From Spirochaetales bacterium (GTDB taxonomy: Bacteria; Spirochaetota; Spirochaetia; SZUA-6; JAFGRV01): 64,000 nucleotides of DNA. A program made the position numbers and the translations under genes. This document shows, one piece after another, positions 12,087 to 52,236 of the stretch. The stretch lies in assembly GCA_016928415.1 (NCBI GenBank), contig JAFGKU010000097.1, positions 3,229 to 67,228 on the forward strand, given 5' to 3'. How positions within the stretch are numbered: the stretch's first letter is position 1; every line of letters begins with the position of its first letter. The notes beneath the pieces were generated by a model that had not been told where the DNA came from, did no database searches, and saw nothing but the letters and a program-made list of their open reading frames with translations.

Positions 12087-12126
12087 TGTTCACTATATTA
12101 TGAACATTTGATAAAAGTGAACATTA
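12060..12126 (+). promoter_or_regulatory. Promoter with four-box operator of the AbiE-like TA operon
   Basis: TTGACT-N16-TATAAT overlapped by AATGTTCA (12068, 12085) and the inverse TGAACATT (12101, 12118). Confidence 0.75.
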
Positions 12127-12806
12127 TGCGGTCCCAAAAACGTAAACATAACATTTTTGCCAGTAAATCCTCCTATATCCTGAGGCAGATGCTTCATAAA
12201 CCGGATCGTTCATGGGTTTTAAGGGATTTTACTGTACCAGGAGGGGTTAGTCTCGGATTGGCACAGGCAGTCATTTCAGAGATGGAAAAACAAGGATACG
12301 TGACATGGGTTAAACGAGGTGTCGGCAGCTCCCTTAAAATGTCAGCTAAGGACAATATTTTGTCTGCTTGGGTCCGCGCTTATGATTTTTATCAGAATTT
12401 CATATATACGTATTACAATCCTGACAAGAAGTTTCTTCAAAAATTGAAGTCCGTGCTTAAGCCGGAACAATATGCCTTAACAGTACACTCAGGAGCGAAT
12501 TTATTGACGTCGTATGTAAGATCAGATGATATTCATCTCTACTTAAATGAGAACTTATGGGATAAGGAACTCCTAAAGCTACGGCAAAAACTAGAACTTA
12601 AAGAATTGGCAAACGGAGGGAATGTCCATATTATTAGATCCTATTACAAGTCCAATGTCTTTCTTCATAAACAGATGATTCGTGGGTTCCCGGTTGTCGC
12701 CAATCTTCAACTCTATCTGGATCTCTATAATTTCCAGCCAAGAGGCAGAGAACATGCCGATTTCTTGAAGGAAACCCTTAATGAACGAGGTGATGGCGTT
12801 GGATGA
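12126..12806 (+). CDS. Type IV TA antitoxin, AbiEi-like transcriptional regulator
   Basis: N-terminal wHTH-like region (VSLGLAQAVISEMEKQGYV) and C-terminal QLYLDLY..RGREHAD motif. Likely ATG at 12126. Confidence 0.75.
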   Translation: MRSQKRKHNIFASKSSYILRQMLHKPDRSWVLRDFTVPGGVSLGLAQAVISEMEKQGYVTWVKRGVGSSLKMSAKDNILSAWVRAYDFYQNFIYTYYNPDKKFLQKLKSVLKPEQYALTVHSGANLLTSYVRSDDIHLYLNENLWDKELLKLRQKLELKELANGGNVHIIRSYYKSNVFLHKQMIRGFPVVANLQLYLDLYNFQPRGREHADFLKETLNERGDGVG

Positions 12807-13590
12807 GCAATATGAGATCGAGTTACAGTTTTATAACATACTGACTGATGTTGAAAAACATCTTGATAATTTAATGCTTGTCGGAGGCTGGCTGCCTTTT
12901 GTTTATATGCGTTTTTTATGGAATGATATGCAGGTTCTGCCGGTCACAACCACCGATGTTGATTTCGGTATTTTAAATACCCCAATACAATCAATTCCAG
13001 ACACTATTTATAAAGTATTATCCAACAGAAATTATAAGGAACGTCATATTGAATTTGGTAAAGAAGTCCCCGTTGTTTTATATAAAAATGGCGTAATTCG
13101 TTTGGATTTCATAGCAGAACCGGATTTGGATGTCAAGGTAAGTAATGAGTTGCTTGGTAGGGAAATTTATTTGCACCGTCTGAAGAAATTCGATTTTCTT
13201 CTTTCACATGGTATTAAAATCGAGGTTATAAACAAACAGGATATAAAGAGATACAAATTGAATTGTCCAGTACCATCTGCCTTTCTTTATCATAAGGGAG
13301 CGACAAGTAGAGACAGGGATGAAGAACATAAAAAGGCAAAGGACTTATATTATATGTATTTCATACTAAGATACGCTCCCGAGCCGGATAAAATATTTGA
13401 AGAAATCAGTGAATATTCAAAAGATAGTAGATACACTGAAGATGTTATGCGTCTAAAGGATTTATTTCATGAAAAAAATAGTCCTGGATGTGTCATGGTA
13501 GAGAAGGAAAATGGACCCGATCCATACATTTATGAATTACGAGAAGATATATACACACGTTTTAATGAGTTCTTTAAAATAATTTCTTAA
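12781..13590 (+). CDS. Nucleotidyltransferase toxin (AbiEii/GSU2403-like)
   Basis: LMLVGGW...TTTDVDF Pol-beta-type motif, HKG and KAKDLYY. Overlaps the antitoxin stop; the true start may be 12793 or 12799. Confidence 0.75.
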   Translation: MNEVMALDEQYEIELQFYNILTDVEKHLDNLMLVGGWLPFVYMRFLWNDMQVLPVTTTDVDFGILNTPIQSIPDTIYKVLSNRNYKERHIEFGKEVPVVLYKNGVIRLDFIAEPDLDVKVSNELLGREIYLHRLKKFDFLLSHGIKIEVINKQDIKRYKLNCPVPSAFLYHKGATSRDRDEEHKKAKDLYYMYFILRYAPEPDKIFEEISEYSKDSRYTEDVMRLKDLFHEKNSPGCVMVEKENGPDPYIYELREDIYTRFNEFFKIIS

Positions 13591-44013: not shown

Positions 44014-44134
44014 TCACCTTTTCAAGGAGAATCTTCTTGGTGTAATTCTGGATGTAAGTTGAAGACGACTTGATTTCAGCAGCTTTAGGCTGATCGCCTT
44101 TTTTATAGAAGACATCCACTTCGTTTTTATTCAA
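44014..44134 (-). pseudogene. C-terminal remnant of a DUF4143-type nuclease domain
   Basis: NKNEVDVFYKKGDQPKAAEIKSSST matches the EVD..E.K motif of the neighbouring ATPase-nuclease genes. Confidence 0.45.
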
Positions 44135-44210
44135 AACTTAAGTACAACTTAAGATTTGCATAAAAATTAAAATTTATTAAGTCTTTTTCAGTCTGATATG
44201 CCATTACCTT

Positions 44211-45446
44211 TTATGGCAGTACTTCCAGGAACCTGTCTGCTGAGATCACGCACTCGTTTTCAGAAACTTTACGAAAAACCCCTGATGTATGAAGGACTTG
44301 TATTACCGGTATTCCCAAAGAAATTCCGAAGTTCCTGACGGGAGTCGGGATTTTTATATCGGATAACTTGGCTTCAATAATAAGCACAGGTTTTTTGTTC
44401 AGAATCAGAAGAAAATCCGCTTCATTGCCGTCGTAATTACGGATATAGCGCAATTCCGCGTCCCCCAGTCCATTGTCGTTCAGGATTTGACAAAACCGGG
44501 AAAGCATCACACCGATAAAATTTTCAAACCTCTGGCCGGGATTCTCCACATAAATCCAATTGATGAAATAGGCCTTTTTTTCCTTTCTGACGGCCCTGTT
44601 GATCCGTTTGTTCCAGGGATACAGGGACCAGATTAACCATAGCCTTTCCATTTGCGCTAAATGATTGACGACAGTCGGGCTGCTGGTCCCGGCATCTTCA
44701 GCCAATGACTTGACAGACAGGGGATTCCCAACACGGTTGAAAAGAAACATCATTATTCTTTCCGCCGTATCTATTTCATGAATCCGGGTCAGTTCACGTA
44801 AATCTTCGGTCAGGATCAATGAAATGTATTCTTTCTTCCACTTGTTTAAAAACCTGTCTGAATCCCTGGTTAATGGTTCGGGAAAACCTCCGAAATGATA
44901 GAGTTGTTCATAATCACCTGTTGAAAGGGTAATTTGACCCGTCAATCGTGATAATAAATTTTTCCAGGGGTCCTTCCAATCGGATTCGTTTAAAAGCCAT
45001 GCATCCGTAATTTTTTTTCCAAGCAATTCGCCAAGTGAAACCGGAAGCATGTTAAAATGCGTATATCTTCCAACAAGGGAATCACCCGATTTTCTGAAAA
45101 GATTGAGCCGTGCGCTCCCGGTAATAAGAAATCTGCATGCGGGTTCCACGGTATCATACAGGCCTTTTAGAATATCTTTCCATTTTTTTCTTTTATGGAT
45201 CTCATCCATGACCACCAGAAAATCGCTGGTTTTTTTATCGTTGAGAAAAAAAAGAGCATTTTTAATATACTGGCTTCGAATATCGGGATTATCCCAATTG
45301 TAATATCCCCCGGGATTTTTTTTCAGCACTTCCTTTGCATAATATGTCTTGCCGATCTGTCTCGGTCCGGAAAGGAAAATCATTTTGTTGCCGGATAGTT
45401 CCTCAGACCAGATATACTGGTCAATTTGACGTTTTAATAAAGACAT
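44211..45446 (-). CDS. AAA_14-type ATPase with C-terminal DUF4143 (PD-(D/E)xK-like) domain
   Basis: GPRQIGKT Walker A, MDEIH Walker B, ITGSA, GGFPE, FEN and EADF..IEAK. Likely start at 45446. Confidence 0.88.
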   Translation of the reverse strand: MSLLKRQIDQYIWSEELSGNKMIFLSGPRQIGKTYYAKEVLKKNPGGYYNWDNPDIRSQYIKNALFFLNDKKTSDFLVVMDEIHKRKKWKDILKGLYDTVEPACRFLITGSARLNLFRKSGDSLVGRYTHFNMLPVSLGELLGKKITDAWLLNESDWKDPWKNLLSRLTGQITLSTGDYEQLYHFGGFPEPLTRDSDRFLNKWKKEYISLILTEDLRELTRIHEIDTAERIMMFLFNRVGNPLSVKSLAEDAGTSSPTVVNHLAQMERLWLIWSLYPWNKRINRAVRKEKKAYFINWIYVENPGQRFENFIGVMLSRFCQILNDNGLGDAELRYIRNYDGNEADFLLILNKKPVLIIEAKLSDIKIPTPVRNFGISLGIPVIQVLHTSGVFRKVSENECVISADRFLEVLP

Positions 45447-45485
45447 ATTACTAATATATCTCAAAACAGATATCGTGTCAATTAA

Positions 45486-45525
45486 ATATGACTTTAAATT
45501 ACACGCGTGTAAATTAAAGTCATAT
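45486..45525. promoter_or_regulatory. 40-bp near-perfect palindrome, candidate operator
   Basis: ATATGACTTTAAATTACACGCGTGTAAATTAAAGTCATAT, with one mismatched pair. Confidence 0.7.
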
Positions 45526-45550
45526 ATATTATCCACGATTTGAATTCGCC

Positions 45551-45579
45551 TTGACAATTTTAACAAATGTAACTATTAT
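45551..45579 (+). promoter_or_regulatory. Sigma70-like promoter for TA module 1
   Basis: TTGACA-N17-TATTAT. Confidence 0.6.
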
Positions 45580-45592
45580 GTAACCATAATGA

Positions 45593-45892
45593 TTGTATTA
45601 TGAGGTGCAAATGTTCAATATAACGATTCGTAATATTCCTAACGATATAATTGAAAAGATTAAAATTCTTTCCGCCATGGAACGAAGAAGTTTAAACAGT
45701 GAAATTCTCATATTGCTGGAGAGGGGTCTGCTGTATGAAACAAAAAACAGGACCGTTAAATCCGTCACCTCATCCACTCAAATAAGGATCTGGGAAAAAT
45801 TATCCGGTGAGTGGAAAGATGAAAGGAATACCGATGAAATTATCCGGGACATTTATTCAGACCGGAGCCTGGGCAGGGATGTCAATTTATGA
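45593..45892 (+). CDS. FitA/Arc-like ribbon-helix-helix antitoxin
   Basis: ITIRNIP..RRSLNSEI. ATGA overlap with the PIN gene. Confidence 0.82.
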   Translation: MYYEVQMFNITIRNIPNDIIEKIKILSAMERRSLNSEILILLERGLLYETKNRTVKSVTSSTQIRIWEKLSGEWKDERNTDEIIRDIYSDRSLGRDVNL

Positions 45893-46281
45893 TCCTTATT
45901 GATACGGATGTGTGCATTGAAATTCTGCGCGGCAATAGACAAATAATGAATCGAAGAAGGGAATACGGGGGAAATGTGGCCGTATCCTTTATGACGGCAG
46001 GCGAACTGTTTTATGGCGCCGGGAAATCGGGTCACAGTGCCGTTAACCGCCATCTGGTCACTGAATTCCTTCTTGTCACGGAAATCATTGAATCCGATAT
46101 CGACATCATGAGAAGGTTCGGGATTATCAAGGCCGAATTAAAGACGAGGAACGAGATGCTTCCCGACGCGGACATCATCATAGGCGCCACGGCCCTGGAA
46201 AAATGTGAAAAATTGATTACGGGAAATACAGGGCATTTCAACCGTATTCCCGGTTTAAAAGTAGAGAACTGGATCAGGTGA
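45889..46281 (+). CDS. vapC: VapC-type PIN-domain toxin
   Basis: LIDTDV, GEL, DADIIIGATA and TGNTGHF. Confidence 0.88.
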   Translation: MILIDTDVCIEILRGNRQIMNRRREYGGNVAVSFMTAGELFYGAGKSGHSAVNRHLVTEFLLVTEIIESDIDIMRRFGIIKAELKTRNEMLPDADIIIGATALEKCEKLITGNTGHFNRIPGLKVENWIR

Positions 46282-46298
46282 CGGGTTTAAACCCATTT

Positions 46299-47693
46299 TT
46301 ATTTGTCCCCGATTAATATATCACCTTCAAATAAAAATACATTATCCGGTTTTGCCAATTCCATCATTTGCTTTGTAAACCCGGATTTGCTGAAAAGACA
46401 AAAATATTCCGATCGCCTTTCCTTCCCCCATTCCACATGTTCTGCCTTTTCTCTCAATTTTCGATAGATATCCGTTCCCATGGGCTTTTTTGACCATTTA
46501 GCCTCCCCGAATATTATGGCATTTGTTTTTCTGTTGATTCCCACCACATCAATTTCTTCATTCCTGTCCCACCAGCCGCCGACTTCAGCAAATTCCGGAA
46601 AGGAGGGATTGTATGAATTGAAGCTCTTGATTGTTTCGCGGGCTATTTTTTCATACGCGGTCCCGTTCAATACGGGCAGGTTTTCTTTCAACATACCCAG
46701 AACATCATTTATCCGGCCCTGCTCAAGCAATGAACGGTTCCTGAATACAAACCTGAACCAGAAAGCAAAAAAATTATCACTAAAGACATAGAGACCCTTC
46801 CTGCTTTTTTCGGGTATTTTTTCCGTAACGGGTATTTTTTTTTCAGTTATATGCAGACTGTCCAGGATTGAAAGATAGCGTGACACGGTACCTTTTTCCA
46901 AACCGCTCTCATTTATAATTTCCGATAACTTATGTTTTCCCAGGGAAATGGCCTCAAGAATAACAAAATAGTTTCTGGGCTCCTTCAATTCTTCACGAAG
47001 CAGGAAATCCACTTCGGCATATAGGGGCTCTCCTTTTGTGAAGATACTGTTTTTAACGGAGTTAATGTAATTTTTACCGGCAAACTGGTTTAAATAAAGC
47101 GGAGTCCCCCCCACGGAACTGTATATGGAAACAGTTTCCTCGAGAGATTTTTCAGGAAACATGGTTTTTACGGATTTAAAAGAGAAAGGCTTAACCAGTA
47201 ATTGTCCCGTCCGCCTTCCATACAATGGGGCTTTATGATGGAGAACGGTTTTTTCCATCATTGAAATACTGGAACCAAGCAGTATAAGAAAAACGGATGA
47301 TGATTTAAGATGAAGATCCCAAATTTTTTGAAACGCCGTTGGAATGGAGGGATCTGTTTCCGCCAAATAAGGAAATTCATCTATAATGACAAGCAGCTTT
47401 TCATTTCTGGCTGAAATATATTTAAAAGCCTGTTCCCAGTCCCGAAAGCCGCTTTCCGGTATAAATTCATCCTGATAGTATGCGGCTATGCTTTCCGAAA
47501 ATTTCAGTACCTGCTTTTGGGGAGTGATCATTTCGCTGAGATAATAAATATGGGGTTTATCCATGCAAAATTTCAATGAAAGCTCGGTTTTTCCCACCCT
47601 TCTTTTTCCGTAAAGGATAATAAGCTGGGCTCCCTTTTGATTCCACTTTTTGTCGAGAAAATCAAGTTCTTCTTCCCTGTTGACAAATTTCAT
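46299..47693 (-). CDS. Archaeal-type ATPase with C-terminal DUF234 nuclease-like domain
   Basis: FVNREEEL, YGKRRVGKT, IIDEFPYL, GRRTG, GGTP, FSDNFFAFWF and GGWWDRNEEIDVV..GEAKW. Confidence 0.88.
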   Translation of the reverse strand: MKFVNREEELDFLDKKWNQKGAQLIILYGKRRVGKTELSLKFCMDKPHIYYLSEMITPQKQVLKFSESIAAYYQDEFIPESGFRDWEQAFKYISARNEKLLVIIDEFPYLAETDPSIPTAFQKIWDLHLKSSSVFLILLGSSISMMEKTVLHHKAPLYGRRTGQLLVKPFSFKSVKTMFPEKSLEETVSIYSSVGGTPLYLNQFAGKNYINSVKNSIFTKGEPLYAEVDFLLREELKEPRNYFVILEAISLGKHKLSEIINESGLEKGTVSRYLSILDSLHITEKKIPVTEKIPEKSRKGLYVFSDNFFAFWFRFVFRNRSLLEQGRINDVLGMLKENLPVLNGTAYEKIARETIKSFNSYNPSFPEFAEVGGWWDRNEEIDVVGINRKTNAIIFGEAKWSKKPMGTDIYRKLREKAEHVEWGKERRSEYFCLFSKSGFTKQMMELAKPDNVFLFEGDILIGDK

Positions 47694-47703
47694 TATTTTC
47701 TCC

Positions 47704-47741
47704 TTAGTTTAATCAAGATTAGTCTAATCTATTTTAGACTA
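47704..47741. promoter_or_regulatory. Overlapping palindromes upstream of the DUF234 ATPase
   Basis: AGATTAG-T-CTAATCT (47716-47730) and TAGTCTAA-N6-TTAGACTA (47720-47741). Confidence 0.55.
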
Positions 47742-47781
47742 TTTATCAATCCCGGGAATATGGGAATATATTAATTTTGAC

Positions 47782-48984
47782 TTATACAAGACCGCTCAGG
47801 AAAATATCCAGTGACACGAGTTGGACATCCCTGGTGACTACCCGCCTGTCATAATTCTTAATAACCTGATAACAGAACGGAATACCCAGTTTCTCCTTAA
47901 AGTAAATTAAATGCCGGGACGGTTTATCATCGGACATTTTAACCTCAACCGCGAACCACGGTTTCCCTTTCCAGGTAACCAGAAAATCGACCTCCCTTCC
48001 CTCCGTATCCCTGATATAATAAAGCATGACTTCGTGGCCATAGGCATCCACAAGGAAATGGCACATTTTAAGCAGGTGACCGGCGACCATATTCTCCAGT
48101 TTTGCCCCTTCGGATTCAATTTCCGACCAGTCCCATAAATACAGCTTGGCTTCCTTTTTAAGGGATTTTATCCTTGTATTATTAAACGGATACACCCTGT
48201 AGCTGTAATACAGGTTTTCAAAAACATTGAGCCACAAAACCACCGATTTATGGGTGACTTCCAGGTCTTCCCGAAGTGCATTTAACGATAACAGTGAACC
48301 GGCACGGGAAGGCAGCATATCACTCAATATTTCCATGGAACTTAAGTCCCTGATGTGCGTTAGGTCCCGTATATCTTCACGGAACAGCAGTTGTTTCCGG
48401 GCATTATGCCATGGCCTACACACAGGACACTGAATCGCAGTAGCGATTCCTTGACTCCATTCACGTTCATCGGCCTTTAAATAAGGTTCCGGGAAACCGC
48501 CGTATGTCATGAGCCGGTCATTAACATCGTTAGACGGAACTTCCTTGGGAAAAACAACCCCTTTCCTGGTTTAATCGTGTTATTTAAATTATTGAGTTCC
48601 GCATAACTGAAAGGATGGAGACGGTAATAATGGTACCGTCCGAAAAGTGAGTCGCCCCCCTTTTTATACATATCGAGCCTGGCGCTGCCCGTAATGAGGA
48701 AATTATGGTATTCCTTTTTAACGTCATATTCGCCTTTTATAAAAGATTTCCACCGGGAGTATTTATGGATTTCATCAAGAATGACGATTTTATTTTCAGC
48801 CGGCCATGCCGCCTTTAATATATTCTTCCTGTGTTCACGGTTGTCCCAGTTAAAGTAGGAAGCCTTTTTTCCCCCCTATCATTCTGGAAAACGTTGTTTT
48901 ACCGACCTGGCGCGGACCTCCGATAAATACCATTTTCTGCTTTAGATCCGAGGTAATATTGGATGTTAAATAGCGTGTCTTCAT
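47782..48984 (-). pseudogene. AAA_14-DUF4143 ATPase pseudogene (two frameshifts and a 39-bp insertion)
   Basis: ATG 48984 MKTRYL..GGPRQVGKT, then a +1 shift at the G6A6 run (about 48865-48876), then YFNWD..LDEIH..ITGSARLD..GRYH. A second shift occurs near 48560, and track ORF 47782..48510 carries the insert. Confidence 0.88.
48418..48456. other. 39-bp in-frame insertion with an internal hairpin
   Basis: ACACACAGGACACTGAATCGCAGTAGCGATTCCTTGACT. CT is repeated at both ends and the stem is GAATCGC/GCGATTC. Confidence 0.75.
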
Positions 48985-48992
48985 ATCTTGAA

Positions 48993-49046
48993 TTTTACCC
49001 TATAGGGTAAAAAAATGGCAAGAATTTTACCCTCATGGGTAAAATT
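48993..49046. promoter_or_regulatory. Tandem palindromes upstream of the AAA_14 pseudogene
   Basis: TTTTACCCTATAGGGTAAAA (48993-49012) and AATTTTACCC-TCAT-GGGTAAAATT (49023-49046). Confidence 0.72.
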
Positions 49047-49250
49047 TCGGAGTAAATTTAATGGAAATAGGATTGAATTTACCATATTTCTCTGGATTGC
49101 TGTTAAAAATCAGCTTTTCTTTCATTTTTCAGGTTTTTTTGTTCAAATACGCTTCCCTGCCTAAATCCCAAAAAAAGTGTCACTTATGTGGATTTTTTTT
49201 GTTTAAGTTATATAGTTAGAAGAAAGGAAATTATGATTATGGAGAGAAAT

Positions 49251-50225
49251 ATGAGCAAAACGAAGATATTTTTTTCAATACTGGTTTTATTTTTATTGTG
49301 TTCGACGGGTTTGTTTGCAATCGATTATATAGTCAGAATAGAAGCTAATGTAACAGATGCTGATGTTTATATTGATGGCAAATTTGTAGGACAGACCCCT
49401 ATCTCACTCAGTTTAAGTAGAGGCGCACATAATTTAAGACTCTCAAAAGCCGGATTCCAGGATTATAATGTAAGAATTAATGTTACCAGGAAAACTTCTT
49501 ATAAGTATAATATGAAAAAATCAGGCGAAGCTATTAATACACCGGTTCCCATTGAACCGACAAGCGGAGTTTTTACACAGTTTAAGTTAAGAATTGATGC
49601 AAATATCAGAGGTGCTACTGTATTTATTGACAATGTCCAAAGGGGCAGAACACCCTTTACAATGCTCATTCCGGTAGGGACATATAACCTGCGTGTAACG
49701 GCACCGGGCTATACGGATTATAATGAGAGGATTGCGATTTCTGCAGATTCAAATTTTAATATTACACTAGAAGAAAGCGTCAAATATTACACTTTGCAGG
49801 TGACGGCGAATGTAAAGGGTGCCCGACTTTATATTAACGGTCATGATTCTGGTAAGACACCTGTATCTCTTAATCTTGCAGCAGGGGATTACCAGATCAG
49901 GGTAAGCTATAAAAATTTTGCGGATTTTGAACAGGTTATCCGACTTGACCATGATATGAGGATCAATGCCGAGTTGCGGTCCTCACTGGCTCAACTGAAA
50001 ATAATCATACCAAAAGACATATTGGATAATCGGAAGAATGCCATAAGGCAGGTTTACATTTACATCGACGGTAAACGGTATGTCAATAAACTCGACTTTG
50101 ACTTAGAGAGTGGTGTACACAAAATACGCATCCTTTCCGGCGGTTTATCCGTTGAAGCATCTTTCAATTTTGAAGGGGGACAGGTTTATAAGATAACACC
50201 ACGTCTGACATTAGATGTGGAGTAA
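49251..50225 (+). CDS. PEGA-domain exported protein
   Basis: Signal peptide and repeated ANV.GA.V.I.G...G.TP PEGA units. Confidence 0.85.
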   Translation: MSKTKIFFSILVLFLLCSTGLFAIDYIVRIEANVTDADVYIDGKFVGQTPISLSLSRGAHNLRLSKAGFQDYNVRINVTRKTSYKYNMKKSGEAINTPVPIEPTSGVFTQFKLRIDANIRGATVFIDNVQRGRTPFTMLIPVGTYNLRVTAPGYTDYNERIAISADSNFNITLEESVKYYTLQVTANVKGARLYINGHDSGKTPVSLNLAAGDYQIRVSYKNFADFEQVIRLDHDMRINAELRSSLAQLKIIIPKDILDNRKNAIRQVYIYIDGKRYVNKLDFDLESGVHKIRILSGGLSVEASFNFEGGQVYKITPRLTLDVE

Positions 50226-51121: not shown

Positions 51122-51514
51122 TTAAAAATTTATTTTCCTCATTCCTCTAACATGTTTAAAATGAGCATCGTTTGTCACGAGAATGGAACCCGTCTCGATG
51201 GCATGCGCGGCAATCCATATATCATTGTTCGGGATGGGATTCCCGCTTTTTCTGAGTTCCAGTTTTATACCGGCATATATCTCCGCCGTCTCGGATCCGG
51301 CCTCTATGATTTTGACCCTGGGCTTCGAGTAAAATACCTTCAACTCATGAAGGTTTTCTTTCTGTTTCCTGCCGAATTTAAATCCATAAAGCAATTCGGC
51401 GAGTACGAATATTGACAGATATACGGCATCGCTTCCGCCAATGATTTCAAAAACCTCCTGATTACCCGCCATGAATTGGCTGTACGCATTGGTGTCCAAA
51501 AGGATCTTTTTCAT
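51122..51514 (-). CDS. vapC: VapC-type PIN-domain toxin
   Basis: LLDTNAY, LAELLYG, IPNNDIWIAAHA and TNDAHF. ATGA overlap with the antitoxin. Confidence 0.9.
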   Translation of the reverse strand: MKKILLDTNAYSQFMAGNQEVFEIIGGSDAVYLSIFVLAELLYGFKFGRKQKENLHELKVFYSKPRVKIIEAGSETAEIYAGIKLELRKSGNPIPNNDIWIAAHAIETGSILVTNDAHFKHVRGMRKINF

Positions 51515-51765
51515 TTCCAATCCTGTTCGTCGATTTGTTCGAAATCCTTTACGGCCTTTTCAAAGTCCTGAAGATCTTTTTTTGACCATTTACCGAATAA
51601 ATCCCTGAAATCGTCCTTGCAGTCATCGGATTTTTTGGACAATCCGAGGGACTGACGCAGCAATTTCTGGATTGTTTTGTTCAGGCTTTCGTGGTTTTCC
51701 TGCGCTTTTCGCCGCAGGGACATTTCCAGATCGCCGTCCAGATTATGTATTGTAATGGAACTCAT
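51511..51765 (-). CDS. FitA-like RHH antitoxin
   Basis: SD AAGGAGG, MSSITIHNLD..SLNKTI. Confidence 0.82.
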   Translation of the reverse strand: MSSITIHNLDGDLEMSLRRKAQENHESLNKTIQKLLRQSLGLSKKSDDCKDDFRDLFGKWSKKDLQDFEKAVKDFEQIDEQDWK

Positions 51766-51774
51766 AAGCCCTCC

Positions 51775-51831
51775 TTGAACCATAATTAACCACTATGGTT
51801 CAATTATAGTTCAAAATTGGTAAGAAATCAA
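51775..51831 (-). promoter_or_regulatory. Promoter and inverted-repeat operator of TA module 2
   Basis: On the minus strand, TTGATT-N17-TATAAT followed by TTGAACCATA-N9-TATGGTTCAA. Confidence 0.7.
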
Positions 51832-51897: not shown

Positions 51898-52113
51898 CTA
51901 TGGGTACCCTTTAGTGTTGACAAAACGCTTCCATGCCAGGTGAATACCATTAAAATTGAACAGGTAACCAACAGGCAAACGGGTAAGCTTTAAGTAATTA
52001 AGAAGTTGCGCCTCATGAACCGATTCAAGTAATCCGGCCCCCATTTCCCGATGCACCTTAAACGCACACTTCAAAATCTTGTTAGACAATTCTTGATAAA
52101 TAAGCTTGGACAT
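51898..52113 (-). pseudogene. GxxExxY-family gene with an in-frame internal deletion
   Basis: SD GGAGG, MSKLIYQELSNKILKCAFKVHREMGAGLLESV fused directly to HEAQLLNYLK..GYLFNF. The central part with the nuclease-like motif is absent. Confidence 0.82.
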
Positions 52114-52236
52114 ATACACCTCCTGCCGCGGATGCTCCAGGGAGCTACGCGGATTAAATTCAGATGGCCGCGGATGGGCCAACTGTAAAAAATTTTTGGA
52201 AAATCTATACGGTAAATGAATAATACGAGATACCAT

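Follow-up and report, generated by a model that had tools for sequence, protein, structure and literature searches.

A decaying head-to-tail array of ATPase-nuclease genes with private promoter palindromes in a Spirochaetales genome

PDC-S01 and PDC-S27 form two related and very common protein families, both made of ATPases fused to PD-(D/E)xK domains, and their validation as defence systems is pending (PMC12988326). They were put forward as phage defence candidates through guilt-by-embedding in restriction-modification (RM), bacteriophage exclusion (BREX), and DISARM loci and were released untested (bioRxiv 10.1101/2024.01.29.577857). In a 2026 survey, PDC-S01 held fourth place in frequency among the "defence" items of prokaryotes, and PDC-S27 was one of the commonest in archaea (PMC12988326). 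In the COG classification, PDC-S01 is equivalent to COG1373 (AAA_14 plus DUF4143) and PDC-S27 to COG1672 (ATPase_2 plus DUF234). The DUF234 and DUF4143 domains are included in a survey of the PD-(D/E)xK superfamily, with function not known (PMC3424549), and we found no functional study of DUF4143, DUF234, COG1373, or COG1672 in the literature, in agreement with a preliminary description of the DNA considered here, according to which these widespread families have no established function. As far as we could find, the published description of the two families includes neither a mechanism nor private operators, head-to-tail arrays, or unit-wise mobility. Here, we analyze members of both families in a 64-kb stretch of the genome of a Spirochaetales bacterium (assembly GCA_016928415.1, contig JAFGKU010000097.1), hereafter called the window. 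The genome is a metagenome-assembled genome (MAG) of 5.1 Mb in 243 contigs, 85% complete, in which the DUF234 gene of this locus is the sole one and DUF4143 matches number 17. The locus does not represent a new family, being an ordinary instance of the two catalogued candidate families in the form of a decaying head-to-tail array. What is new is that each gene is an autonomous unit with clade-specific palindromic boxes over its own promoter.

The array is transcribed from the minus strand in the order pseudogene, DUF234 gene, intact DUF4143 gene, and vestige stretch, within an accessory islet of about 5.2 kb and low GC content that sits behind the conserved DapL/D-Ala-D-Ala-carboxypeptidase gene pair. 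Open reading frame (ORF) listing and profile searches identified the first unit (47782 to 48984) as a broken AAA_14-DUF4143 gene of PDC-S01. Pfam and PADLOC assigned the next two, an intact ATPase_2-winged helix-DUF234 gene of PDC-S27 (46299 to 47693; 464 amino acids) and an intact AAA_14-winged helix-DUF4143 gene of PDC-S01 (44211 to 45446; 411 amino acids). The mechanical ORF of the latter spans 44211 to 45566 and begins at TTG 45566, and we reassigned its start to ATG 45446 because of the conserved N terminus and the position of the promoter. We state with high confidence that the locus consists of independent single-gene units arranged head-to-tail, two of them intact. The preliminary description had listed an array of ATPase-nuclease genes with vapBC on the other strand, and all of these elements were recovered in place or nearly so.

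The intact DUF4143 protein matches the Pfam models AAA_14 (5.7e-26) and DUF4143 (1.4e-16; this profile covers the first half only) and, over its full length, the PADLOC model PDLC04790 of PDC-S01 (E = 5.8e-51). The DUF234 protein matches ATPase_2 (1.8e-27), DUF234 (1.8e-22), and the PADLOC model PDLC04984 of PDC-S27 (E = 4.1e-48 over residues 2 to 441). The PADLOC run thus returned the two candidate families, PDC-S01 being matched by the pseudogene as well (E = 2.7e-21). With full-length hidden Markov model (HMM) matches, the same domain order, a single-gene organization, and the very wide and patchy distribution of the families, the window genes are members of PDC-S01 and PDC-S27, from which no structural difference separates them. 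In an alignment of 28 homologues of the DUF4143 protein, E342, D344, E358, and K360 are invariant or nearly so, and the Walker A, Walker B, and sensor motifs are conserved too. Among 57 homologues of the DUF234 protein, the Walker A residues G29..K35T36, the Walker B residues D105E106, and the nuclease residues D382, E397, and K399 are invariant. These alignments bear out the earlier statement that the intact genes keep Walker A/B and a C-terminal nuclease motif. The conserved motifs and a confidently modelled C-terminal beta-sheet domain place both C-terminal regions in the PD-(D/E)xK superfamily, so that the restriction-endonuclease-like fold ascribed to them earlier agrees with the predicted structures and with the inclusion of both families in the published superfamily survey (PMC3424549).

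The AlphaFold2 models reach predicted local distance difference test values of 91.6 for the DUF234 protein and 90.6 for the DUF4143 protein. When the DUF234 model was compared by Foldseek, the best matches were 2qen and 2fna, which are nuclease-less archaeal ATPases, followed by Orc1/Cdc6/ORC and, lower, by STAND/NLR proteins. For the DUF4143 model, the top matches were Orc1/Cdc6 on origin DNA (2v1u and 2qby), RuvB, and RFC, and the CARF nucleases Cdn1 and Card1 were also retrieved. A sequence search of the PDB returned 2qen alone for the DUF234 protein and no match for the DUF4143 protein. The models predict that each protein joins a winged helix and a PD-(D/E)xK nuclease to an ATPase of Orc1/Cdc6-like, AAA+/STAND-like type. 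Both would therewith be akin to AAA+/winged-helix proteins that bind DNA sequence-specifically, a PD-(D/E)xK effector being added to them.

The likeness to archaeal Orc1/Cdc6 (2v1u, 2qby) comprises the order of AAA+ domain and winged helix and the presence of repeated boxes beside the own gene. However, the window proteins carry a fused C-terminal PD-(D/E)xK nuclease, their boxes overlap a promoter rather than flank an AT-rich unwinding element, and their families have many divergent copies per genome and show no sign of a replication role. Although the Orc1/Cdc6 fold is the best or near-best PDB match, the TIGR02928 (Orc1/Cdc6) score is 15.7 bits against a cut-off of 181 bits, and no origin context was found. 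We read the modelled proteins as probably similar to Orc1/Cdc6 in DNA recognition and not as members of that family. With the STAND/Avs-type NTPase-nucleases and with Card1/Can2, they share a P-loop NTPase switch joined to a PD-(D/E)xK effector, as well as fold matches. Unlike these, they have neither a large sensor domain (TPR) nor a CARF domain, they carry a putative sequence-specific winged helix between ATPase and nuclease, and they are defence candidates only.

A palindrome stands directly upstream of every unit in the window, and according to a promoter scan each one overlaps a sigma-70-like promoter. In the DUF234 gene (promoter/operator 47700 to 47749, minus strand), three 11-bp boxes of the form ATTAG-N-CTAAT (47743 to 47733, 47728 to 47718, and 47713 to 47703) recur with a period of 15 bp between a -35-like TTGATA (47749 to 47744) and the Shine-Dalgarno sequence GGAG (47703 to 47700). 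About 30 loci of many phyla share this architecture upstream of their DUF234 genes, with boxes that fall into three classes, ATTAG/CTAAT, AGTAG/CTACT, and AGTAT/ATACT. Periodic 7-mer repeats are present in half of 34 DUF234 upstream regions and in 1.5% of 271 control upstream regions taken from the same loci (Mann-Whitney p = 7e-23). When the box class is mapped on the DUF234 protein tree, it changes 7 times, compared with 18.1 times after shuffling, and none of 200 shuffles gave so low a number, a co-variation that shared descent partly inflates. Furthermore, 14 alignment columns are class specific, that is, conserved within classes and differing between them. Six of them lie in residues 241 to 280, the part that makes up the modelled winged helix and in which the weak ArsR-type helix-turn-helix matches fall; residue 271, in the presumed recognition helix, is different in all three box classes.

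The intact DUF4143 gene has a different operator (promoter/operator 45453 to 45539, minus strand; palindrome and promoter scans), consisting of a 68-bp palindrome (45472 to 45539) centred on TTTACACG|CGTGTAAA, with the half-sites AATTTACACG / CGTGTAATTT at 45515 to 45496. A third half-site, AATTGACACG (45483 to 45474), overlaps the -35 hexamer TTGACA (45481 to 45476), and the -10 hexamer TATATT (45458 to 45453) lies 7 nt before the ATG. Upstream of orthologues in Spirochaetales, Fibrobacterota, Chitinivibrionales, Bdellovibrionales, and other MAGs, we found the ...ACG|CGT... palindrome together with a TTGACACG half-site, and other DUF4143 subclades have different palindromes in the equivalent place. 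Inverted repeats with arms of at least 10 nt occur upstream of 46% of 90 DUF4143 genes, compared with 3.6% of 474 controls (p = 7e-24), and strong private palindromes, mutually different, precede 8 of the 15 DUF4143 ORFs examined in this genome. The pseudogene, too, has retained an operator of its own (promoter/operator 48992 to 49044, minus strand; paired palindromes and promoter scan), in which two 20-bp palindromes, TTTTACCC-N4-GGGTAAAA (49044 to 49025 and 49012 to 48993), flank the -35 hexamer TTGCCA (49021 to 49016). The downstream one overlaps the -10 hexamer TAAAAT (48997 to 48992), and ATG 48984 stands 7 nt past the latter. In both DUF4143 genes, 7 nt thus separate the -10 hexamer from the ATG and a Shine-Dalgarno sequence is missing, a layout kept in orthologues (loci L069 and L072). 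Because of this spacing and the missing Shine-Dalgarno sequence, the DUF4143 mRNAs are probably leaderless; the DUF234 gene, unlike them, has its GGAG. An assignment of the 68-bp palindrome to the neighbouring vapBC module was considered and rejected, since palindromes of this type recur upstream of orthologous DUF4143 genes elsewhere and since vapB's own promoter lies beyond the palindrome.

Our confidence in the autoregulatory layout of these units is high, and its simplest interpretation, inferred from the sequences, would be that each protein attaches to its own promoter by means of its winged helix. No second occurrence of the paired or arrayed boxes of any of the three window genes was found genome-wide. 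We therefore rejected a regulon governed by the boxes, as the arrays are single-copy in the genome. This result bears on the possibility that the proteins are ordinary host sequence-specific regulators or DNA-maintenance factors, for instance Orc/Cdc6-like organizers, with no role in conflict. Such a role would fit the Orc1/Cdc6-like fold with its winged helix, the resemblance of the repeated boxes to origin recognition boxes, and the scattering of copies among housekeeping genes. However, the box arrays lie solely at the own promoter and hence define no regulon, every member carries a fused nuclease with a conserved active site, and the patchy distribution, horizontal transfer, pseudogenes, and widely varying copy number in relatives, described below, are unlike those of a host factor. 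We consider this explanation improbable.

The reading that we favour, to which we assign a probability of roughly 0.55, is that the proteins are self-repressed, ATP-controlled DNA-binding ATPase-nucleases that act in genetic conflict. In the mechanism we propose, the winged helix would bind the private boxes and repress its own gene, and this self-repression would keep a potentially toxic nuclease scarce. ATP binding or hydrolysis would govern oligomerization on DNA and license cutting upon a trigger, which may be foreign DNA or a foreign protein. By analogy, such a switch would mirror the working of NTPase-nuclease conflict and defence proteins. Units gained through horizontal transfer would accumulate head-to-tail where slots are permissive and would then decay. 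A parallel in gene organization is offered by autoregulated type II toxin-antitoxin modules, which are likewise small autonomous units with a palindromic operator in their own promoter, many divergent copies, and horizontal spread, and which are frequent neighbours of the ATPase-nuclease units. Unlike in those modules, repressor and nuclease are joined in one polypeptide, the ATPase takes the place of the labile antitoxin, and addiction is not evident. The locus shows together the traits that make the abundant PDC-S01 and PDC-S27 families tractable, since a short clade-specific promoter site for each gene predicts a cognate protein-DNA pair. If the boxes are the binding sites of the proteins, these two uncharacterized NTPase-nuclease families, which are among the most abundant, would gain their first biochemical handle.

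Several findings weigh against a conflict function. In a cold-seep study, one PDC-S01 and one PDC-S27 member expressed in E. coli B gave no protection against T4, T5, and T7, and neither was among the four protective candidates (PMC12881386); a demonstrated function for any member of either family was not found in the literature. None of the 45 window ORFs belongs to a validated defence system according to PADLOC, whose other matches in the window were generic helicase, cNMP-binding, and AAA domains and the candidate PDC-M37B. Around the other DUF4143 copies of the genome, 74 ORFs encode mostly binding proteins, glycoside hydrolases, fatty-acid synthesis enzymes, a tRNA synthetase, and GGDEF/EAL proteins. 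Also present are four GxxExxY (PDDEXK_3) genes, some toxin-antitoxin genes, and a single AbiE pair, which is the only known defence system among these neighbours, the rest being mostly housekeeping. A number of copies that reaches 42 in a single genome is likewise unusual for a defence gene. Lastly, that the winged helix binds DNA is inferred only from position, conservation, and co-variation, the last of these being subject to the effect of shared descent already mentioned.

The defence interpretation given in the preliminary description amounts to the published candidate status and is neither new nor validated. Our confidence in an anti-phage function is moderate to low. The term "defence island", put forward there as a candidate label for this locus, was not supported, given that no validated system lies in the window and that the DUF4143 neighbours elsewhere in the genome are mostly housekeeping. 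RM, BREX, and DISARM systems were found neither in the window nor among the 74 neighbours of the other DUF4143 copies, so that the locus is not embedded in the way by which the two families were first picked; such embedding is a property of the discovery set and not of every PDC-S01 member. The expected enrichment next to known defence genes was seen in part. Among 34 DUF234 loci of other phyla, three adjoin type I RM methylases, three PDC-S01 genes, two PDC-S11 genes, and two HicB genes. The DUF234 neighbourhoods show enrichment, yet most contexts are unremarkable. Toxin-antitoxin genes are neighbours at this locus and at others. The two families occur often on plasmids (165 and 300 records) and, apart from unverified faecal fragments, are nearly missing from phage records.

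The preliminary description had also proposed serially acquired modules subject to turnover, and here our results agree with it. With a GC content of 40.4%, the islet ranks in the lowest 1.9% of the genome's 5.2-kb windows (46.4 +/- 2.9%). The DUF234 protein (61 to 69% identity) and the intact DUF4143 protein (50 to 56%) have their nearest relatives in Omnitrophota, Ratteibacteria, Planctomycetota, Elusimicrobiota, Chitinivibrionales, and others, and the adjacent carboxypeptidase-like housekeeping gene is merely 39 to 48% identical within the same taxonomic family. In the protein tree, the DUF234 protein falls in a clade with Omnitrophota, Ratteibacteria, and a deltaproteobacterial MAG, with 100/100 support. 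The DUF4143 paralogues within the genome share just 23 to 38% identity; they are acquisitions or ancient copies and not recent duplicates. The number of DUF4143 copies in genomes of the same order (24 relatives, G001 to G024) ranges from 0 to 42 and varies widely even inside genera; one genus has genomes with 25, 35, and 42 copies, and other genomes have none. Of the 17 DUF4143 copies, 13 are no more than 2.5 kb away from a contig end, compared with 4.1 expected (0 of 5000 simulations). Clustering at contig ends is what strain-variable loci give in metagenome assemblies. Several copies sit on contigs of 3 to 6 kb, the assembly breaking beside these genes. A further intact AAA_14-DUF4143 gene, of 373 amino acids, lies about 500 bp past the window end (C166:67763-68884, minus strand), 163 bp from the contig end, and is 35% identical to the intact window copy. 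An empty site in a close relative was not found, the nearest genomes being related only at the family level (39 to 48% identity of the flanking gene); in one of them (G001), the DapL-carboxypeptidase pair is kept and is followed by an unrelated TPR gene. Metagenome contigs scanned with the flanking protein gave no match. Taken together, horizontal acquisition and turnover are supported by these comparisons.

The units also appear to move singly. Two contigs with unrelated flanks are 99.6% identical in precisely one segment, which reaches from 118 bp upstream of the DUF234 gene to 48 bp downstream of it. Similarly, in Smithella-like genomes, DNA identity of 84 to 92% is limited to the DUF4143 ORF and about 60 bp upstream of it, and the arrays of these genomes vary by whole units (m1-m2-m3-m4, m1-m2, m1-m3, and m1-DUF234). 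Adjacent family members form 17 same-strand and 2 opposite-strand pairs in 198 loci (p = 7e-4), a few of these pairs being fragments of broken genes. Since each unit has its own promoter and operator, the designation as single-gene modules given in the preliminary description appears justified.

These observations raise the main alternative, that the units are selfish single-gene mobile cassettes, in which winged helix and nuclease would act at the boxes, which would be cassette ends as well as operators, and would bring about insertion or replacement beside existing copies; the array would then reflect mobility and not service to the host. Besides the sharp ends of homology at the promoter-plus-ORF unit, the whole-unit differences between related arrays, and the head-to-tail orientation of 17 of the 19 adjacent pairs, the clustering of copies at contig ends, the copy-number range, and the vestige directly behind the intact unit would fit such behaviour. 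However, neither a pair of empty and filled sites nor a target duplication was found, the boxes stand at one end of the unit only, and unit borders elsewhere lie in simple heptamer repeats or REP-like palindromes, by which ordinary recombination could shuffle the units. Moreover, strong purifying selection across phyla argues that the proteins do something beyond spreading. We regard selfish cassettes as an unlikely explanation, and still less likely is the specific version in which PDC-S01 and PDC-S27 would be autonomous mobile cassettes whose own winged helix and nuclease insert, replace, or protect the unit at its boxes. Such an action at the boxes would explain why the arrays run head-to-tail, why homology ends sharply at the unit, and why a vestige lies behind an intact copy, and, if true, boxes as cassette ends would constitute a new kind of gene-sized mobile element.

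The borders in question were seen in Smithella-like and related MAGs (L026 to L028 and L149 to L154), where the array spacers contain tandem heptamers, (TTTCACN)n and (CTTAANN)n, that recur at unit borders, and the same borders carry a repetitive extragenic palindromic (REP)-like GC palindrome (CCTCCGCCGGCGGAGG...). These palindromes and heptamers could mediate the shuffling of units in the Smithella-like arrays by ordinary recombination. A scan of the window locus found no tandem repeats of note, and its spacers are without REP-like or heptamer repeats.

Integron arrays resemble this arrangement in their unrelated single genes set head-to-tail, whole-unit differences between related genomes, and interspersed toxin-antitoxin cassettes. 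An integron cassette is a promoterless ORF with an attC site, arrayed beside intI and attI. Instead, the window units have their own promoters, and the 88-bp spacer, filled by promoter and boxes, is too short for an attC site. The MAG does encode an integron integrase (C31:221-1483, minus strand; TIGR02249 score of 451 bits versus a cut-off of 265, which was reached by 0 of 14 control genomes), but on a different contig, and we consider integron cassettes at this locus unlikely. The integrase gene is located 220 bp from its contig end with no cassette array assembled alongside, and a GCCTAAC/GTTAGGC core-like site is present in the terminal 220 bp. A crude R''/R' scan, made without a positive control, found no attC-like site in the genome.

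A different question is whether the DUF4143 protein, the DUF234 protein, and VapBC work as one joint multi-gene system. This could be supposed from the contigs L025 and L026, in which the DUF4143 gene directly ahead of DUF234 is the orthologue of the window pseudogene (47 to 62% identical), and from a Ratteibacteria contig, one of these two, that has the order DUF4143-DUF234-DUF4143 as here, amid toxin-antitoxin genes. However, DUF4143 lies within 6 kb of DUF234 in only 6 of 38 DUF234 loci, and DUF234 follows in only 2 of 66 pseudogene-subclade loci, counts on which an obligate DUF4143-DUF234 pair was rejected. Furthermore, the DUF4143 gene ahead of one identical DUF234 protein varies between contigs, every gene is equipped with a promoter and an operator of its own, and in the window the supposed partner is broken and the DUF234 gene is intact. 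A joint system is thus largely refuted by the locus counts, and of all the explanations considered we hold it the least probable, with hardly any weight left to it.

Under the favoured reading of self-repressed conflict ATPase-nucleases, the array with its pseudogene and vestige documents gain and decay of units. The pseudogene unit was inactivated recently and can be read in three pieces, in frame 2, frame 0, and frame 2. The first frameshift is in a G6A6 tract (48865 to 48876) and the second in a G4/T5/C3 stretch (about 48547 to 48566). A third lesion, recognized by comparison with the intact orthologues (47 to 62% identical), is an in-frame insert of 13 codons (39 bp; 48418 to 48456). The motifs are still readable, with GGPRQVGKT as Walker A, LDEIH as Walker B, and EVDFLV...VEVK in the nuclease, and the pieces match the AAA_14, DUF4143, and PDC-S01 models (PADLOC E = 2.7e-21, 0.0023, and 6.4e-06). 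A separate Logan assembly (run SRR13394437) is 100% identical over 45565 to 49484, and because this independent contig is identical, the frameshifts are no quirk of one assembler. Both frameshifts fall in homopolymer runs (G6A6 and G4, T5, C3) and jointly restore the original frame; they could reflect either slipped-strand, phase-variable switching or plain decay. The 39-bp insert holds, on the minus strand, the hairpin GAATCGC-TACT-GCGATTC, the core of which belongs to a repeat family found at about 26 sites on 26 contigs of the genome, in tandem on contig C221. Judging from its sequence, this repeat looks like a REP or miniature inverted-repeat transposable element able to land inside coding sequence.

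Of the fourth unit, at most a vestige is left. The stretch 44014 to 44134 (minus strand) encodes a putative nuclease end of 40 amino acids, NEVDVFYKKGDQPKAAEIKSS (NEVDVF...AAEIKSS), which carries a motif resembling E.D...E.K, aligns with positions 328 to 360 of the family HMM, and directly adjoins the stop codon of the gene for a D-Ala-D-Ala carboxypeptidase-like protein. Since the match, among six frames, is no better than E = 0.02, a vestige of an older DUF4143 gene is plausible only. Regarding the two remnants reported earlier, the pseudogenised AAA_14-DUF4143 gene with its three lesions was therefore upheld, whereas the second remnant is marginal. Between the vestige and the stop codon of the intact DUF4143 gene, we found an AT-rich inverted repeat (44124 to 44166) with 20-nt arms that are 90% complementary.

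The spacer between the two intact ATPase-nuclease units contains the vapBC module (45551 to 46281, plus strand; profile searches and promoter scan), which lies between the stop codon of the DUF234 gene and the operator of the intact DUF4143 gene under its own promoter, TTGACA-17-TATTAT at 45551 to 45579 (promoter scan). vapB (45593 to 45892, plus strand) encodes a FitA-like ribbon-helix-helix protein (E = 1.1e-07), and vapC (45889 to 46281, plus strand) encodes a PIN domain protein (E = 1.5e-10). The antitoxin gene overlaps the toxin gene by 4 bp (45889 to 45892), an arrangement that identifies a type II VapBC module. VapC matches the NCBIfam VapC equivalog with 2.7e-26 and 92 bits, below the cut-off of 140 bits, and for this reason the toxin is annotated from its sequence as VapC-like rather than as the tRNA(fMet)-specific equivalog.

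Elsewhere in the window, positions 12108 to 13590 (plus strand) hold an overlapping two-gene pair that is AbiE-like by eye, in a low-GC patch (37 to 39% GC). The PDC-M37B match (9.8e-44) belongs to one window ORF, possibly in this pair, the tally being given without ORF identity. Beyond the array, positions 51122 to 51783 and 51898 to 52236 (both minus strand) hold another PIN/antitoxin pair as well as a GxxExxY (PDDEXK_3) gene that is truncated, 2 to 3 kb past the array and within a low-GC stretch from 44 to 52 kb (36 to 43% GC). GxxExxY genes also adjoin four other DUF4143 copies in the genome.

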